Shown here: in pieces, positions 52,810 to 61,665 of the stretch
How the letters are laid out: the number at the start of each line of letters is the position of its first letter
Numbering within the stretch: the first letter of the stretch is position 1
Assembly (NCBI GenBank): GCA_903850505.1
Contig: CAINLT010000006.1
Coordinates: forward strand, 15,536-79,535
Source: an uncultured Myxococcales bacterium
GTDB lineage: Bacteria; Myxococcota_A; UBA9042
Length of the DNA: 64,000 nucleotides
Direction: 5' to 3'
Position numbers and translations under genes: made by a program
Notes under the pieces: model-generated
Databases searched by the model: none
What the model was told of the DNA's origin: nothing
Seen by the model: the letters and a program-made list of their open reading frames with translations, nothing else

Positions 52810-55800
52810 CTACGGCAGGAGCAGGCGGACTTGCTGCGGATCGGCGGGCGTGGCCTGGAAGCGCCAGATCCACGCGAGGCGGCCGTCGGCAAAGACTGCA
52901 ACGCGTGGCGACGACTGGTCGCCGGTCGACTCCGCGCTGGAAACGACGACTTCCGGATCAGCGAACGTGCCGTCAGGAGCCAGCGTCCGCGACGAGACTT
53001 CAAGTCCAGCAGCAACGCTGACGGCCTGCGGCGAAGTCCAACCGATGACTGCGCCGCCATTGGCGAGCTGGGCGATCGTCGCGTCGGCCTGATCACCGGC
53101 GGTGATGGTGTTGACGGCGCTGACCTGACCCGTCGGCGCGCCTTGGTTGTCTGCCTGGCGGAGGCCAATACCCGCGCCGCTGCCGTCGGTGGACGTGCCG
53201 GACCAGGTGATGGCGAAGCCCTTGGCGAACGGCGCAATGGCAGGGTGCGAGCCGGTTCCCGTGCTCGAGTAGGCCATCACGCCGTTGATGGCGGCGCTGG
53301 CGGCGTTAAAGAGGTGGCCGCGCACGCGCTGTTTCACGGAACTGTCGACGTGCATCCAGACGATGGCGAAGCTGCCATCCGCGCGCATGGTCACGGCGGG
53401 CTGCTGCTGGTCACCTTGAATCGGATCGTCCAAACCGCTGCCATTGGGGTCTTCGTTGGCCAACAGCAAATCGCCGGCGAGCTGACCGTTGACGTCGAAA
53501 CGCTGGGCGCCGATGCCCAAAGTGCCCGTGCCTTCAAGGTCGGTCGTCGTCCAGACCGCGACGAAATCGCTGCCGTTGCTGGCGAGCGCAGGGTCGGTCT
53601 GGTCGCCTTGTGAATCGTTGGGCGCGTTGGCGATGAACGCCGCGGCCTTGGGCGTGCCGGCGCTGTCGAACAGCCGGACGTAGATGTCGGCATCGCCAGC
53701 CGCCTTTGACGTCCAGGCCAACGCGAAGCCGTCACCTACCTTCGCGATCGCGATGCGCGAACCCTTGATTGCCGGTGTGCTGCCTTGAACCGGTGCGCCC
53801 GCTCCCGCAGCGACGCCGTCTGCGCTGAACATCCGCACGCTCACGGACGCGACGGTTGCCGAGTCACTCAACCACGCGGTGGCGATCTTGCCGTTGCTGA
53901 GGACGGTCGTGACGCCGCCGTAACCCGAAGTCGTGTCGCTCACCGCGATGCTGCCATCGGGCACGCAGACGCCGTCGCCAGAGCAGTGATCGCCCGCGGT
54001 GCATGCGCCTTTGGGGGCAACGCTCTTGCCGTCGGCGGCGCACTGTTGAATCTTGGTCGCGTCCGCCGGATCGCAGCGCAGCGCGTTGGGCGTGCACAGG
54101 ACGCACGCGCCTGAGACGCACACGGGCAAGTTGGAGCCGCACACGGTGGGCGCGCCCCAGGTGCCGGACGTGCAAGAAGCGATGCTTTTCGAGGTCAAGC
54201 ACCGCGTGCCCGCGTCATCGGCAAAGACCATCGCGCCAAAATCGCCGATCGCCGCGCACTGTTTGGGCTTGACCGTGCAGGCCTTGCCCGTGCCGCCCAG
54301 GACTGTGACGCAGGTGCCCGTCGTGCAATCCGCGTCCGCTTGGCACGGCGCGGCGGGCGGGCAGACGTTCAAGTCGGTCTTGCCGTCGCAGTTGTTGTCC
54401 AGGCCGTCGCAGGAGACTTCGCTGCTCTCATAGCCGGCGACGCTCTGGTAAATGCACATCGACTGGGCGCTGATGCACGCCGCCGGTACGCCCGCCGCGC
54501 ACACGCCCTTGGCCTTGCACGTGGACGCGTCGACGACGCCTTCGTCCGTCAACCCGTCGCAGTCGTTGTCCTTGCCGTCGCACTTCGTCTCGACCGTTTC
54601 GTAGTCCGCGGCGATCGCCGTCGGGTCGCATTTCCAAGTGCCGCCCGTGCAGCTCGCGCTGGCCAACGCGCAGACGCCCTTGCTGCAGCCGCTGGCGCTG
54701 GCGTCGAGGGCGTCCGGCTCGTCGGTCTGGCCGTCGCAGTCGTTGTCCACGCCGTCGCAAAGCGTTTCAATCGCTTGGAAGCCGGCGATGTGGCTGTAGT
54801 CGCACGTCGCCTTGCCAGCCGCGCATGTGACCGCAGCGCCAAAGCCGCACACGCCTTGCATCTTGCACTTAGCGGACTTAGCGCTCACGGTCTCGTCGGT
54901 CAGCCCGTCGCAGTCGTTGTCCTTGCCGTCGCATGTCTGCTCAAACGCCTCGTAGCCCTTGCTCGCGATGCTGCTCCAGTCGCACGTCCAGAGGCCACCG
55001 CTGCACTGCGCCTTGGCGTCGGCGCACACGCCGGTGCTTGGGCACGGGGACAAACTCGGGCTGGGCAGGCTGACGTCGGTCGTGCCGTCGCAGTCGTTGT
55101 CCTTGCCGTCGCAGCTCTTCTCCGGCGATTCGTACTTGGCCACCGCGCCGTAGTTGCACACGAACACGCCCGCTTCGCAGCGTTTGACGATCTTGTCCGG
55201 GTTGGCGCCGCAGACGCCTTTGGTCGTGCAATCGCTGGTGTCCTTGGCCTGCAGCGGCAAGGCGCTGCCGGCGAGGTTGTCGACCACACCGTCGCAGTCG
55301 TTGTCCTGGCCGTCGCACGTCTGCTCAAAGGCTTCAAAGCCCGCAACAGCAGTGTAGTCGCACGTCGCGACGCCGCCCGCGCACACTTGTTTCACGCCCG
55401 CGGTGCAGACGCCCTGGCCGAGGCAGCTCAAGCCGGTTACGGTCAAATTCGCGTCGACGATGCCGTCGCAATCGTTGTCCTTGCCGTCGCACTTGGTCTC
55501 GACAGCCTCGTAGTCCGCGCCTTCATACGCACAGTCCCAAGTGCCGCCGGTGCAAGCGGGCGCTGGCAGGCTGGCGCACACGCCCGCACGCTTGCAGGTG
55601 GCGATGCCGGGGGAGACGTTGTCGTCGGTCTTGCCGTTGCAGTCGTTGTCCTTGCCGTCGCAGCTTGTCTCGATGGCTTCGTAGCCGGCCACGCCGCTCC
55701 AGTCGCAAATCCACGTGCCGGCGTTGCAGACCGCGTGGCTGAGTGATTGCCCCGCGCACACGCCGACCGCCGGGCACGTGCCCTTGGGCGGCAACACGCC

Positions 55801-56136
55801 TTCGTCGGTCAGGCCGTTGCAGTCGTTGTCCTTGCCGTCGCAGAGCGTTTCAATCGGCTCGTACCCATCGGGGACCGTCAACGTCTTGCCGTCCTTGATC
55901 GCCGGGCTCTTGGGCGTCCAGGCGCTGCATTCCGCGACGCCGTTGGGCGACGTGCACGTAGCCGTCCAGCCGGTGCAGACACCCACTTCCGCGCACGGAT
56001 TGGGATCGCAAGGATCAGTCGCCGATTGCTTGTTGATGGTGACCGAACAGGCGCTGAGCGCGAGCGCAGCCACGCAGCCAAGCAGCAAGGCCGGCAGGCG
56101 GTGGAGAACAAAAGGCAAAAGGCGACGGGACATCAT
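52810..56136 (-). CDS. Secreted cysteine-rich repeat protein (MopE-type motifs) with C-terminal repeated beta-rich modules
   Basis: Signal/lipobox MMSRRLLPFVLHRLPALLLGCVAALALSAC. 9 copies of CDG[KQVL]DN[DN]CDG..D. The C-terminal half has repeated ..G.GI..Q.F...G...G......(W) modules. The SD GGAG overlaps the upstream stop. Confidence 0.85.
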   Translation of the reverse strand: MMSRRLLPFVLHRLPALLLGCVAALALSACSVTINKQSATDPCDPNPCAEVGVCTGWTATCTSPNGVAECSAWTPKSPAIKDGKTLTVPDGYEPIETLCDGKDNDCNGLTDEGVLPPKGTCPAVGVCAGQSLSHAVCNAGTWICDWSGVAGYEAIETSCDGKDNDCNGKTDDNVSPGIATCKRAGVCASLPAPACTGGTWDCAYEGADYEAVETKCDGKDNDCDGIVDANLTVTGLSCLGQGVCTAGVKQVCAGGVATCDYTAVAGFEAFEQTCDGQDNDCDGVVDNLAGSALPLQAKDTSDCTTKGVCGANPDKIVKRCEAGVFVCNYGAVAKYESPEKSCDGKDNDCDGTTDVSLPSPSLSPCPSTGVCADAKAQCSGGLWTCDWSSIASKGYEAFEQTCDGKDNDCDGLTDETVSAKSAKCKMQGVCGFGAAVTCAAGKATCDYSHIAGFQAIETLCDGVDNDCDGQTDEPDALDASASGCSKGVCALASASCTGGTWKCDPTAIAADYETVETKCDGKDNDCDGLTDEGVVDASTCKAKGVCAAGVPAACISAQSMCIYQSVAGYESSEVSCDGLDNNCDGKTDLNVCPPAAPCQADADCTTGTCVTVLGGTGKACTVKPKQCAAIGDFGAMVFADDAGTRCLTSKSIASCTSGTWGAPTVCGSNLPVCVSGACVLCTPNALRCDPADATKIQQCAADGKSVAPKGACTAGDHCSGDGVCVPDGSIAVSDTTSGYGGVTTVLSNGKIATAWLSDSATVASVSVRMFSADGVAAGAGAPVQGSTPAIKGSRIAIAKVGDGFALAWTSKAAGDADIYVRLFDSAGTPKAAAFIANAPNDSQGDQTDPALASNGSDFVAVWTTTDLEGTGTLGIGAQRFDVNGQLAGDLLLANEDPNGSGLDDPIQGDQQQPAVTMRADGSFAIVWMHVDSSVKQRVRGHLFNAASAAINGVMAYSSTGTGSHPAIAPFAKGFAITWSGTSTDGSGAGIGLRQADNQGAPTGQVSAVNTITAGDQADATIAQLANGGAVIGWTSPQAVSVAAGLEVSSRTLAPDGTFADPEVVVSSAESTGDQSSPRVAVFADGRLAWIWRFQATPADPQQVRLLLP

Positions 56137-56141
56137 GGCTC

Positions 56142-57611
56142 CTAGAACGACCACGTCAGCGAGAAACTGGAGGGCGAAATGCCGATCATCGGCACGGCGG
56201 CTGCCACTGGCGCCGCTTCCACCTGCGTGTGTTTGCGCGACGACGGCGCGGCGTCATGCGGGGCAAAAAGCCACCACGCTGCACCAGCCGCAACCAGGAC
56301 GCCGCCGCTCACGATCAGCGCGTTGGCCAGCGTGGCATTGTGCGTGGCGGACGTGGCCAGCGTATCGACCTGGCCGCCATAGGTCGCCGACTTGGGATTC
56401 AGCCCGTTGGCCGAGCTCGCGTCGCTCATCGCCTGGATACCAAACCAGCCGCCCGCACCCAGCGCCAGCACGCCGAGGCCCGCCACCGTGTACGGCCCAA
56501 CCTTTTGGATCCACGAGACTTTGCCCGACGTATCCTCGTGCTTCTCAATGCCCATCGGCGGCACGGCGTCCTGCTTGACCACCGGCTTCGGCTCTTCAGC
56601 CGGCTTGGGCGGCTCAACGGGCTTGGCCACTTCCACAGGCTTCGGCTTCTCGACCGGCTTGGGCTGTTCGATCGGCTTGGGCTGTTCGATCGGCTTGGCG
56701 ATTTCGACGGCTTTGGGCTTTTCAAGGGGCTTGGGCTGCGCGATCGGCTTGGGCTGCTCGGTCGGTTTGGCCACTTCTACCGGCTTGATGGGCTCCACCG
56801 GCTTGATGGGCGCCACGGCCTCGATCGGCGCTTCCGCCACCACCGGCTTCTCCGTTGCGGGCGGCAGCACGGGAACGACGACTGGCGTTTCTTCCGGCTC
56901 CGGCTGGGCATTGACCATCGCCGCACCCTGGTCTTCCGGAACCAGCGCGATCGCCACGAGGCTGCCTTCGCCGCCGACTTGCACCGTGCGCAATTCGCTG
57001 CTGAAGCCTTTTGCCGTCGTCTCCATCGCCCACGTGCCGGGCGCCAGCCACGCGTGACCGGAGCCAATCAGCACGCGTTCCGCACCGCGGCGGCTCTTGC
57101 GATCGGCGCGGCTGAGTTCAACCCGCGCGCCTTCCGGCCGCACCAGGATCGCAACGCGCACCAGTCCCGCCGGAATCTGCGGCGTGACGCGCGCCACAAC
57201 CTGCTCGGCCCGCTGTTTCTCGCCGGGATTGAGATCGCGCGCCAAAGCCCGCGTCGCTGTTTCACGTGCTTCCGCATACAGCCGCGCCCGTTCCTGCGCC
57301 TCCGCCTGCTCCACCACCCAGATCGGCTCACCGCCCAGCCGCGTCGCCGCGCGCCAGTGCTCTGCCGCCAATTGCTCAAGACCGGCGCGGGCTTCCACGC
57401 GCGCCAAGCTGGCAAGGCGGAGGGCTTGGGTGTAGCGCTCGGGACCAGTCGGGCCGTCAACGTCGAGGCGGCCAGACTGCTGGACGACCTGAGTACCGCC
57501 GCCGCAGGCCACAAGTGTGCAAAACCACAAGCCAAGCAACAATGACCCAAACAGCTTGCGGGTGCGAGGCTGAGGTAAGGTCATTGGGGGTCTGGAGCGC
57601 GCACAGCTCAT
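56142..57611 (-). CDS. PEGA-domain lipoprotein with Pro/Lys/Glu-rich repeat linker and C-terminal TM segments
   Basis: Lipobox LWFCTLVAC. PEGA motif VRPEGARVEL...LAPGTWAMETTAKGF. KP[VI]E[QP]PKP-type repeats, seen at DNA level as cggcttgggctgttcgat repeated twice near 56650-56690. Two hydrophobic helices lie near the C-terminus. Start is 57611 or 57584. Confidence 0.75.
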   Translation of the reverse strand: MSCARSRPPMTLPQPRTRKLFGSLLLGLWFCTLVACGGGTQVVQQSGRLDVDGPTGPERYTQALRLASLARVEARAGLEQLAAEHWRAATRLGGEPIWVVEQAEAQERARLYAEARETATRALARDLNPGEKQRAEQVVARVTPQIPAGLVRVAILVRPEGARVELSRADRKSRRGAERVLIGSGHAWLAPGTWAMETTAKGFSSELRTVQVGGEGSLVAIALVPEDQGAAMVNAQPEPEETPVVVPVLPPATEKPVVAEAPIEAVAPIKPVEPIKPVEVAKPTEQPKPIAQPKPLEKPKAVEIAKPIEQPKPIEQPKPVEKPKPVEVAKPVEPPKPAEEPKPVVKQDAVPPMGIEKHEDTSGKVSWIQKVGPYTVAGLGVLALGAGGWFGIQAMSDASSANGLNPKSATYGGQVDTLATSATHNATLANALIVSGGVLVAAGAAWWLFAPHDAAPSSRKHTQVEAAPVAAAVPMIGISPSSFSLTWSF

Positions 57612-57701
57612 CGGTTCCAGACTACGGGCAGGCCCTTGGAGTGTCAACGAAACTGCCCGCAAAACCGCCGTGCGGGACGACGCATCCGACCTGCCAGCCA
57701 A

Positions 57702-57980
57702 CTACTTGCCCAGCGCCGCTTTCATGCGCGCGAGGCGAGGCGCAACGTCGCCGTCCAGGCCAAACGTCCGCCCGGCTTCCTTGAATTCCACGCTGCCGGC
57801 GACCTCGTTCAGGCCATGGCTGCCAAACGCGCGGCGCTGGACGCCCATCGCGAGGTCCATCAGGCGCGGGACATCACCCTTGGCCTTGGCTGCGGCATAA
57901 TCGGCGCGGAACGCCGGAGCTTCAAAGCCAACGACGATTTCCTCCAGGATTTCCAAAAACACCGGCTTGTCCATGGCCAT
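57702..57980 (-). CDS. Hypothetical small protein (92 aa) coupled to the upstream AAA+ gene
   Basis: ATG 57980 lies 2 nt after the AAA+ stop codon (57983-57985). MAMDKPVFLEILEEIVVGFEAPAFRADYAAAKAKGD... No family recognised. Confidence 0.55.
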   Translation of the reverse strand: MAMDKPVFLEILEEIVVGFEAPAFRADYAAAKAKGDVPRLMDLAMGVQRRAFGSHGLNEVAGSVEFKEAGRTFGLDGDVAPRLARMKAALGK

Positions 57981-57982
57981 CC

Positions 57983-60331
57983 TCAATCGTCGGGGTAGAT
58001 GCGAACGACGCGTCCTGCGTCTTTGTACTCGCGTTCTCCGGCCTTGGCGAGCAGCGCGTGGCTCAACGGCGACCGCGCATCGCGCGCCCACACGGCCGCC
58101 CGCAGCACCGCGTTTTGGATCTGGCCGCCCGTCAGCTCCCAGTCCGCCGCGAGGTCGCTCAGCTTCAGCTCAACGTCCTGCGGCGCGTCGGCCGGAATCA
58201 TGACCTGCCACAGCCGCGCGCGTTCCGCAACTTCAGGCGGCGGAAAGTGCGGCTTGAAACGGATGCGCCGCAGGAATGCGCCATCGATCGCATCGGGATG
58301 ATTGGAGGTGAGGATGACGACGCCGTCAAAGTCTTCCAGCCGCTGCAGCAGGTAATTCACTTCCAGATTCGCGTAGCGATCCACCGACGACTGAACGTCC
58401 GTGCGCTTGGCAAAGAGCGCGTCGGCTTCGTCGAACAACAGCGCAATGCCGGCGTCGTGGCTGGCGTCGAAGAGCTTGGACAGCCGCTCCTCGGTTTCGC
58501 CGATGTACTTGGAAACGACGCTGGCGAGGTCGACGCGAAACAGCTCCAGGCCGAGATCGCGCGCCACGAGACCGGCGCACAGCGTCTTGCCGGTGCCGGA
58601 CGGGCCGGAGAAAAGCGCGGTCAGCGCCCGGCCGTAGCCCATCGTGCGGCCGTAGCCCTGCTCGTCCAGCACGAAGCCGGCGTGGCGGCCAAAGCGCACC
58701 ATCTCGTCGAGCACTTCGCGCGTGTCGTCCGGCAGGATCGTCGTGTTCCAGCGACCGCGCACGTTGACGCGGGTCGCGAGCCCGGCGAGGCGTGAACTCG
58801 CCACTTCGCGGCACGCGCGCTCCACATCGCCGACGGCCAACCGCGTGGTGCTGGCGTTGCGGGACGTTGCAGCGGCGAGCGCCAGGCTCGATGCGAGGTC
58901 GATTTCGTCGACCCCAAACTTGTAGACACTCACGGACGCCACGGTATCTTCGACCTCCGCCGCCGCCATCCGCTCTTCCAAACGGTTCAGCCACAGCGCC
59001 TTGCGTTCGTCCACGGCCAGCGCGGCGGTTGGCAGTTCCACGCAGCCCAGTTCGCGCAGCAGCCCAAGGCGGGCGCGCGGCGTCAAATGCGTCGATTCCG
59101 CCGACCGGCCGACATGACCGTGAAAGAACAGCGTCGTCGTCTCGCGCTCCAGCAGGTGCAGCAGGCCGGCCAAGCGCTCCGCGCCGTGTTCGCCGGAATC
59201 GATCGCTTCCGCGTGGCTGAAGAACACGCCCGATCGCGCCAAACGCGCGCGACCCAACAAGCTCCCAAGGCGGGTGAGATCGCCTTCCAGCAGCAGATCC
59301 AGCCGCACTTCCAGCATCCCTTCGCCCAACTGCGAGAGCGCTTCGCGGGCCATCCGCAGCGCACCAGCGCGCTCAGAACCGACGACAAGGAACCGCCGCC
59401 GACCGCGAAATCCGCGGGTCAGCGCGTCGCGCAACACCGGCGTCAGCGCTGGGGACGCGGTCTCCGTCCGCAGCGGGTGGGCGAGCACGCCCGTCATGTC
59501 GTCCAGCTCGGACGGCACGCCCAGCAGGTGCCGACACACCCAGCGCGCGACCTGCCACCGGGTGCTCTCCGCGCCGTCACCCGCCACGCGCACGAGACCA
59601 TAGCGCCGCAGTGTCGCGTTCTGCGCCAGATCCGCCAGCACAGCGGCGCCGCGCATCGCAAAGGGGTCCAGCGCGTGCAGCAGCAGATCCTCGGGCCAAG
59701 CGGTCTGCGTCGGATCGCGCCAGAGCGCGCGGTACAGCCACAGGAACTCCGGCACCAGCGCCGGCGCCAGCAGCAGCCACAGCGCGTCGCACGCCAGATC
59801 GTTCAGGCCAAAAGCCGCGCGCAGTTCATCAAACCGCCGCGCCGTGTCGCTGGTCGGCGCGATCGCATCGTACGGCATCGCCAGTTCGGCATCGAGACGC
59901 TGCACGAAAGCCTGCCGTTCGGCGTCCAGCGCTTCGCCGCGCAGACAACGCAGCGCGGTCGCGTCCAGCGTCGCCGCCACGCCGGTCGGCCACGGCGTCC
60001 GCGTCGGGTCATCGCCCGGGCGCTCCCACGGCCGCAGCACCGCCAGATACCGCTGGAGCAGCGCGCGCACACGGTCCAGATACGGTGCAAAATCGACCGC
60101 CGCGCCCGCCAGCCACGGCGTCTCCGTCGCCACCGCGCCATCGGCGTCGCGCAGCAACTGCCGCACCAGATCCAGCTGCGCCGCCGTCAGCGACTCCGTC
60201 GTGATTTCCGGGTCAATGTGCGCTTCCTGCAGGATCGCCTTGGCGCGCGCGCGACTCACGCCCGGCAGCCACGTGAGCGCCGTTTCAATCGGTCGGTGCG
60301 GCGGCAAGCCTGTCAATCCGAGTCGCGCCAT
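57983..60331 (-). CDS. AAA+ ATPase with degenerate first ATPase-like region and an N-terminal ribosomal-protein-S13-like domain
   Basis: The C-terminal AAA domain has LFSGPSGTGKTL (Walker A), ALLFDEADALF (Walker B) and VVILTSN (sensor 1). The N-terminus MARLGLTGLPPHRPIETALTWLPGVSRARAKAILQEAHIDPEITTESLTAAQLDLVRQLL aligns with the E. coli S13 N-terminus as I remember it. Confidence 0.85.
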   Translation of the reverse strand: MARLGLTGLPPHRPIETALTWLPGVSRARAKAILQEAHIDPEITTESLTAAQLDLVRQLLRDADGAVATETPWLAGAAVDFAPYLDRVRALLQRYLAVLRPWERPGDDPTRTPWPTGVAATLDATALRCLRGEALDAERQAFVQRLDAELAMPYDAIAPTSDTARRFDELRAAFGLNDLACDALWLLLAPALVPEFLWLYRALWRDPTQTAWPEDLLLHALDPFAMRGAAVLADLAQNATLRRYGLVRVAGDGAESTRWQVARWVCRHLLGVPSELDDMTGVLAHPLRTETASPALTPVLRDALTRGFRGRRRFLVVGSERAGALRMAREALSQLGEGMLEVRLDLLLEGDLTRLGSLLGRARLARSGVFFSHAEAIDSGEHGAERLAGLLHLLERETTTLFFHGHVGRSAESTHLTPRARLGLLRELGCVELPTAALAVDERKALWLNRLEERMAAAEVEDTVASVSVYKFGVDEIDLASSLALAAATSRNASTTRLAVGDVERACREVASSRLAGLATRVNVRGRWNTTILPDDTREVLDEMVRFGRHAGFVLDEQGYGRTMGYGRALTALFSGPSGTGKTLCAGLVARDLGLELFRVDLASVVSKYIGETEERLSKLFDASHDAGIALLFDEADALFAKRTDVQSSVDRYANLEVNYLLQRLEDFDGVVILTSNHPDAIDGAFLRRIRFKPHFPPPEVAERARLWQVMIPADAPQDVELKLSDLAADWELTGGQIQNAVLRAAVWARDARSPLSHALLAKAGEREYKDAGRVVRIYPDD

Positions 60332-60366
60332 GGCCTGAACCTACTGCCGTTCAGGATCGCGTGCAA

Positions 60367-61665
<1,299 letters not shown>

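Follow-up and report, generated by a model that had tools for sequence, protein, structure and literature searches.

The window analysed here is a stretch of 64,000 nucleotides (nt) from an uncultured Myxococcales bacterium (GenBank assembly GCA_903850505.1, contig CAINLT010000006.1, positions 15,536 to 79,535). The present study concerns a gene on its minus strand that encodes a tandem AAA+ ATPase of 782 amino acids (aa), whose N-terminal head is homologous to the N-terminal helix-two-turn-helix (H2TH) domain of ribosomal protein uS13, together with a small partner gene next to it. An initial annotation, made from the letters alone, had drawn attention to positions 60152-60331, which are residues 1-60 of this ATPase, and the translation of 57983..60331 begins with MARLGLTGLPPHRPIETALTWLPGVSRARAKAILQEAHIDPEITTESLTAAQLDLVRQLL, identical to the string given there. 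The gene and the parts of its product are laid out as follows:

57983..60331, minus strand: S13-headed tandem AAA+ ATPase P0001, 782 aa (open reading frame and translation; Pfam matches to S13, a winged-helix domain and AAA)
60149..60331, minus strand: head, residues 1-61, homologue of the uS13 N-terminal (H2TH) domain with helices at 15-19, 27-36 and 50-61 (homology, fold, conservation, synonymous excess)
60107..60148, minus strand: linker, residues 62-75, variable, acidic and predicted to be disordered (pLDDT, the predicted local distance difference test score, below 50; mean column identity 0.45)
59477..60106, minus strand: N domain, residues 76-285, with a helical and a winged-helix portion (Pfam PF22977 matching residues 118-281, E 2.5e-13)
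58772..59440, minus strand: D1, residues 298-520, AAA fold with dead motifs (secondary structure of the model, Foldseek, motifs)
58019..58729, minus strand: D2, residues 535-771, active-looking AAA domain of the classic clade (Pfam AAA, E 6e-25; PDB sequence matches)

Homologues of the ATPase fall into 46 clusters with 52-90% identity, and M1 is retained in 43 of the 46. Only three codons separate the upstream in-frame stop from the ATG (open frame of 785 aa), and the second methionine is residue 152. Given the short open frame upstream of the ATG, the conservation of M1 and the mostly synonymous codon differences in the head within the genus, the start codon is secure, and the possibility that the true start lies downstream of the S13-like segment, which the initial annotation had raised against its own proposal, is ruled out.

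That residues ~1-60 resemble the N-terminal domain of S13 from Met1 onwards and without gaps, as first proposed, is borne out by pairwise, Pfam, profile and predicted-fold comparisons alike. The earlier estimate of ~20 identities over ~58 positions, made against the E. coli S13 sequence quoted there, became 21 of 60 ungapped positions when counted, with a BLOSUM62 sum of 91 as compared with -49 +/- 15.5 in 200,000 shuffles (z = 9), and the quoted sequence itself is supported by the solved E. coli uS13 chain, residues 1-58 of which match residues 1-58 of the head at E 8e-5. When residues 1-70 were compared by phmmer with all PDB sequences, 59 of the best 60 matches were S13/S18 chains, led by Thermus (1-60 to 1-60, ungapped, E 1.2e-5), and the lone exception, a fatty-acid oxidation subunit, came last at E 0.12. 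Pfam assigned the same segment to Ribosomal_S13 (1.1e-7; 32.8 bits, gathering score 31), with profile positions 1-60 of 128 aligned to ATPase residues 3-62, and the whole 782-aa protein scored 27.2 bits (E 5.7e-6), under that gathering score. Three uS13 models of NCBIfam also match the head (TIGR03631 at E 9e-7), with scores of 23.6-29.3 bits that stay below the cut-off of 130. A profile built from the 46 head sequences retrieved S13 chains from the PDB at E 3.9e-11, all of the 60 matches listed being S13/S18, and a profile of residues 1-535 searched against 1.84 billion representatives drew in true S13 fragments at the head positions (E 5e-12 to 2.5e-8); a word-indexed search with the head alone returned same-genus proteins only. 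The AlphaFold model of residues 1-66 (pLDDT 81.5) has helices at 15-19, 27-36 and 50-65 and superposes on uS13 chains with template-modelling (TM) scores of 0.7-0.82 and a root-mean-square deviation of ~1 A over 50-59 residues, while all 50 top Foldseek matches of this model in the PDB are uS13/eS18. We consider the homology of residues 1-61 to the uS13 N-terminal H2TH domain confirmed.

The same relationship emerged from a survey of 401 Myxococcota species genomes, of which 29 belong to one GTDB family and 372 do not. Outside the family the head profile found exactly one match per genome, the rpsM frame of 122-177 aa, in 272 of the 372 genomes (E 3e-15 to 1e-6). The window's own genome has its true rpsM elsewhere (G000:C455), in the order adk-rpsM-rpsK-rpsD, away from the ATPase gene. 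The head shares 16-27 of 61 residues (27-44%) with real Myxococcota S13 N-domains, which share 24-57 of 61 among themselves, the family's own S13s sharing 25-39 with the rest; judged by these identities, the head is an old, diverged paralogous S13 domain. No alignment was obtained when the head was compared by BLASTP with the S13 of its own genome, though the ungapped score of the two is well above chance (z = 6.9). The family's own S13 (L001 1404-1769; L047-L073) was observed to have an unusual H2TH, ALRS/ALQS..YGVGPKVAVDVC, with Pro27 and Cys34; the head is less like it (17-21 of 61) than like other Myxococcota S13 (up to 27 of 61), and at E 1e-6 the head profile fails to find it. Co-evolution of the head with the organism's own S13 (H2TH GVGPKVAVDVC) was considered and rejected, as P27 and non-basic residues at 29 and 31 also occur in other Myxococcota S13 and give no specific signal.

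The head is a translated segment on which purifying selection acts. Over the 46 homologues its mean column identity (0.82) is second to that of D2 (0.87) and ahead of the N domain (0.75), D1 (0.72) and the linker (0.45), the last of which also differs in length among homologues, and 18 of its 61 positions are invariant. Synonymous codon differences in the head outnumber nonsynonymous ones within the genus by 10:2, 17:4, 30:3 and 17:6. The hairpin of H2TH and helix-hairpin-helix (HhH) type, LPGVSRARAKAIL, is kept, with G24, R27 and A30 invariant and R29 and K31 nearly so.

Behind the linker, the full-length model (pLDDT 74) resolves into three parts, namely the N domain, a first AAA fold and a second AAA fold. 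The initial annotation had described a degenerate ATPase-like middle region with VVGSERAGAL where a Walker A would sit, and this description fits well, since the motif (residues 316-325) occupies the strand-loop-helix of the P-loop site in the model and GSERAGAL (318-325) stands in place of Walker A in D1. In addition, no D-E pair follows the Walker-B strand (367-372), and these D1 motifs are the family consensus. D1 thus cannot hydrolyse ATP, as its P-loop lysine motif is replaced and the acidic pair after the Walker-B strand is missing. The C-terminal AAA domain, by contrast with D1, is canonical, just as the annotation had it: D2 has Walker A GPSGTGKT at 576-583, a pore loop K608-Y609-I610-G611, Walker B D634-E635 within LLFDEAD (631-637), sensor-1 N677 and Arg fingers R688-R689, all of them invariant in the 46 homologues and together placing D2 in the classic clade of AAA+ proteins. 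Its PDB sequence matches include VAT, Cdc48 and NVL (E 1e-25 to 1e-31), and in a Foldseek search the full model aligned over 520-650 columns with the tandem-AAA proteins NVL, Drg1/Afg2, Cdc48 and Rix7.

With the profile of residues 1-535, from which D2 had been left out, 1080 relatives were retrieved at E < 0.001. Of those without a head, the nearest are P0048 and P0049 (725 aa each, P0048 being ~40% identical), which start at the conserved post-linker helix 'YLDRVRxLLQRY'. Two more distant relatives, P0065 and P0075, each stand first in a canonical contractile-injection-system (CIS) locus with the gene order AAA, eCIS_core, Pvc16_N, sheath, tube, VgrG, gp25. Their alignment with the query is collinear at 31% identity and extends over residues 166-774 for P0065 (E 5e-76) and 170-740 for P0075 (E 1e-74). 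The plan of Pvc15, with an N domain, a dead D1 and an active D2 with GTGK, DEAD, a KY pore loop and RR fingers, has been described (PMC11495950). We conclude from these alignments that the ATPase body belongs to the Afp15/Pvc15 family of CIS ATPases, which fill these phage-tail-like machines with cargo. The earlier label of an unfoldase-type ATPase therefore holds in that the protein is a tandem AAA ATPase, but not as a generic description, because collinear homology places it in the Afp15/Pvc15 family. A tblastn search of residues 77-540 against plasmids, aimed at a named afp15, gave no match.

The partner gene lies immediately behind the ATPase gene, and the adjoining features are:

57702..57980, minus strand: partner gene, ~90 aa, likely start at the second ATG, 57974 (profile, context)
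52810-57701: gene for a tetratricopeptide-repeat (TPR)/lipoprotein-like protein of 519 aa and gene for a 1114-aa protein with nine MopE-type Cys-rich metal-binding repeats
60332..60366, minus strand: purA-ATPase spacer, 35 nt, with a 7-bp inverted repeat (CCTGAAC...GTTCAGG) read from the sequence

The likely partner ATG at 57974 is preceded at a distance of 7 nt by a GAGG that spans the stop codon of the ATPase gene (57983-57985). The partner adjoins the ATPase in all 16 loci examined, usually with a 4-nt overlap or a gap of a few nt, as a translationally coupled gene. In one genome it is inverted and convergent with the ATPase (L028 10833-11177, G139:C51). The partner profile matched 28 of the 29 family genomes and none of the 372 others, and the 118 clusters of partner homologues all stem from the same lineage. 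Pfam gave no significant match for the window's copy, with P_C10 unmatched at E <= 10, and a profile search of the PDB with the partner found nothing. P_C10 (PF14974) is the only Pfam family that partner homologues match repeatedly (11 of 116 at E <= 0.01, best 4.5e-4, all below threshold), and hhalign of the partner with human C10 spans the full length (83 columns) at a probability of 26-42%. A relationship of the partner to C10 (C12orf57) is thus suggested tentatively by these profile comparisons.

In 12 of the 16 loci, across genera, the TPR/lipoprotein-like gene (519 aa) and one for a ~1100-aa MopE-repeat Cys-rich protein come next after the pair; they may form an operon with it or merely reflect conserved core-genome order. 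In one genus the ATPase-partner pair is found in a different gene context, and hence the two-gene pair is the unit. A scan of the purA-ATPase spacer (60332-60366) for consensus promoters and terminators called none. At the locus L003, purA overlaps by 4 nt with the ATPase gene, which here encodes a distant homologue.

The initial annotation had suggested that the phylogenetic distribution of the fusion be surveyed, and in our sample it was present in 26 of the 29 genomes of the family (12 genera) and in none of the 372 others. The head profile gave 28 matches inside frames of 785-902 aa over the 401 genomes, all in this one family and at E 1e-28 to 1e-39, and among the 1.84 billion representatives the headed ATPase forms a single 50%-identity cluster, plus fragments. 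As for the three exceptions, G314 has a contig break with the partner at the contig end, and G204 (83% complete) is missing both the ATPase and the partner at the syntenic site. In G052, from the same genus as the window's organism, the segment corresponding to window positions 57976-60373 is replaced by ~80 nt between purA and the partner (L106, G052:C33 9760-9839), and the partner gene is intact (70.6% identity) despite the clean deletion of the ATPase. Another genome, G154, has two complete ATPase-partner pairs on different contigs (C101:1342-4032 and C91:1007-3706), and therefore ATPase and partner are duplicated together.

In two other families, remote relatives have an eroded head, aligned by hhalign at E 1.7e-5 over 38 columns in P0085 and at 3e-4 over 58 columns in a protein of G271. 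Because eroded heads occur in these two families, the head may be older than the family in which it is well kept. The remote relatives with eroded heads (P0085, G271 and G191) lack the partner, and a second AAA paralogue comes after them instead. At the loci of G191 (L018 1983-6472, G191:C17) and G271 (L017 1992-6603, G271:C341), we observed a 785-aa eroded-head relative translationally coupled to this paralogue of 710-750 aa, the N-terminal half of which is degenerate, giving a two-ATPase module.

The organisms of the family do possess an injection system. A CIS locus with Pvc16_N, two sheath genes, tube, VgrG and gp25 is present in 29 of 31 family genomes, on other contigs than the ATPase, and no AAA or eCIS_core gene was found within 10-20 kb of these loci. 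The CIS loci of the family (L100/L101, G144:C4:90001-130000; L104, G184:C37) and those of other Myxococcota (L039-L042) start at Pvc16_N and are likewise without AAA or eCIS_core within that distance; the canonical loci L044 and L045 contain both an AAA ATPase and eCIS_core. The Pvc15-family paralogues of the family are all unlinked to CIS (for example G000:C266:15217-15648 and C190:6521-7081). The neighbours of the S13-headed ATPase, namely purA, the 90-aa partner, the TPR/lipoprotein-like gene and the MopE-repeat protein, do not make up a CIS cluster.

We tentatively propose, with confidence somewhat short of even, that the S13-headed ATPase would be a ring-forming unfoldase of the Afp15/Pvc15 type that has moved out of the CIS locus and acquired a uS13-derived N-terminal targeting head. 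In this proposal the protein would form a presumably hexameric ring in which D2 would be the only motor, threading substrate through its KYIG pore loops, and D1 would be structural and give the ring its cohesion. Each subunit would have its S13-like head swinging on an acidic disordered linker above the ring, as a targeting module, and the 90-aa partner would be a cofactor or a client of the same machine. As ligand of the head, a structured nucleic acid, most likely RNA of ribosomal or ribosomal RNA (rRNA)-like nature, is a possibility that we put forward with similar reserve, and that is favoured because the head keeps the H2TH/HhH hairpin together with its basic residues.

Several observations weigh against this proposal. 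The near-invariant S13 residues I4-A5-G6-V7, Y23, G26 and G38 are replaced in the head, and nothing in it corresponds to profile positions 61-128, the half of S13 at the C-terminus that contributes to its anchorage in the 30S head; given both, it seems unlikely from the alignment that the head occupies the S13 site exactly. The basic positions 27, 29 and 31 are not conserved among real Myxococcota S13, so that their retention in the head is weak evidence for RNA binding. Furthermore, the neighbouring genes (purA, the TPR/lipoprotein-like gene and the Cys-rich secreted giant) include no translation genes, and G052 has lost the ATPase yet retains the partner, from which it follows that the two are not strictly interdependent. 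A more specific form of the proposal, a ribosome-directed AAA+ remodeller, strikes us as unlikely: through molecular mimicry by its heads, the ring would be brought onto the 30S head, an assembly intermediate that has no S13, or a partner of S13 such as uS19, uL5 or bL31, and D2 would then extract or unfold a ribosomal or ribosome-bound protein.

Nucleic acid thus comes first among the possible ligands of the head, and the docking of the partner or of another protein comes next. That the head might be a protein-protein module for the 90-aa partner, as adaptor, regulator or substrate, with the H2TH surface re-used and no nucleic acid involved, is a doubtful reading that nevertheless has several features of the pair in its favour. 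Head and partner share the same exclusive distribution (26 and 28 of 29 family genomes, respectively, and 0 of 372 others), their genes are translationally coupled, both have been duplicated together in G154, and the eroded-head relatives (P0085, G271 and G191) have a second AAA paralogue in place of the partner. Co-distribution, however, ties the partner to the whole protein and not specifically to the head, and the intact partner of G052 has no ATPase to dock on.

It is quite improbable, and has become more so in the course of this analysis, that the S13-headed ATPase is the organism's CIS loader encoded in trans, with the head selecting or tethering a special cargo. Such a role would suit an ATPase of the Pvc15 family in a lineage where nearly every genome (29 of 31) has a CIS and where the CIS loci are without AAA or eCIS_core within 10-20 kb, but two or three other AAA paralogues with PF22977 are encoded per genome and resemble the CIS-linked ATPases just as closely over their full length (31-32%), G052 keeps its CIS sheath locus without the S13-headed ATPase, and the stable neighbours of the ATPase gene are not CIS genes. 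The idea that the S13-headed protein is the sole Pvc15-like ATPase was accordingly rejected, as there are 2-4 PF22977 AAA genes per genome and the others match CIS-linked ATPases equally. A joint loss of ATPase and CIS in G052 was rejected as well, because the sheath lies 367 nt from a contig end and Pvc16_N is missing through an assembly break only.

We give very little weight to the view that an accidental gene fusion left behind a head without function; the eroded heads of the remote relatives could speak for it, but it is already contradicted within the family by a head that is conserved above the N domain and D1, with 30% invariant positions and a strong synonymous excess. Least probable of all, and close to refuted, is a generic HhH similarity or chance likeness instead of descent from S13, since the weak Pfam HHH match at residues 22-35 (E 0.076) and the empty BLASTP comparison with the genome's own S13 stand against an ungapped match from Met1 to ~62 that spans the N-terminal strand and all three helices, against S13/S18 as 59 of 60 single-sequence, 60 of 60 profile and 50 of 50 fold matches listed for the PDB, and against a head match that is specific for rpsM in 272 genomes.

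The initial annotation knew of no architecture in which an S13 module is fused to an ATPase, and our reading of the literature on S13-like/H2TH domains with AAA+, on PF22977 and on orphan Afp15-type ATPases likewise brought up no paper that describes such a fusion; a few homologues carry the automatic JGI name 'ribosomal protein S13'. As far as this reading goes, neither the S13-ATPase fusion nor the small gene paired with it has a published description. To our knowledge, it is rare for a ribosomal-protein domain to be found in the service of another machine as a copy that is still clear from its sequence. In the present case it is sharply defined where the module came from (uS13), what received it (an injection-system loader ATPase) and where its boundary lies (Met1-61, followed by a disordered linker), and the head module would therefore be easy to cut out. 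If the head does bind rRNA or ribosomes, the ATPase would be a bacterial AAA+ unfoldase that targets the translation machinery, and if the ribosome remodeller holds true, an injection-system ATPase would have been made into a functional counterpart, in prokaryotes, of Rix7/NVL and Drg1/Afg2. Should the head instead bind the 90-aa partner, a ribosomal RNA-binding fold would have been turned to the binding of a protein, and a first genomic partner would be on record for the (tentatively) C10-like family. On either reading, Pvc15-type ATPases have been repurposed outside injection-system loci.

Among known systems, human protein C10 (C12orf57; P_C10) aligns end to end with the partner in hhalign, all matches being below threshold. 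The anti-phage ATPase IetA/IteA is the best NCBIfam and PADLOC match of the S13-headed ATPase, on the D2 region only, and an identity with it was rejected, the score being 83.9 bits against a cut-off of 510. A protease partner of the IetS type was not found, in that none of the three downstream genes matches a Pfam protease family and the upstream neighbour is purA, and unlike IetA/IteA the S13-headed ATPase gene sits in a stable core-genome position. The type II AAA+ unfoldases Cdc48/p97, NVL/Rix7 and Drg1/Afg2 match the whole model best in structure, covering both AAA domains, but their N domains differ and D1 is catalytically dead in the S13-headed ATPase, and the relation goes no further than common membership of the classic AAA clade. 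NVL/Rix7 and Drg1/Afg2 act on pre-ribosomes.

With uS13 (RpsM; PF00416; S13-like H2TH superfamily), the head has in common its three-helix fold and a register that starts at Met1, and the shared positions include M1-A2-R3, P10, K/R13, A18-L19-T20-Y21, G24, A30, L48 and R57. Unlike uS13, it lacks the long C-terminal helix and the basic tail, covering profile positions 1-60 of 128 only, has several uS13-invariant residues replaced, and is joined to a 720-residue ATPase outside the ribosomal operon in a genome that has its own rpsM. The closest counterpart of the remaining protein is Afp15/Pvc15 ('Cis15'), with which the S13-headed ATPase shares the plan of an N-terminal winged helix, a dead D1 and an active D2 as well as the motifs. 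In contrast to Afp15/Pvc15, it is encoded outside a CIS locus, has the additional S13-like head and acidic linker, and is paired with the 90-aa protein instead of eCIS_core/Pvc16.

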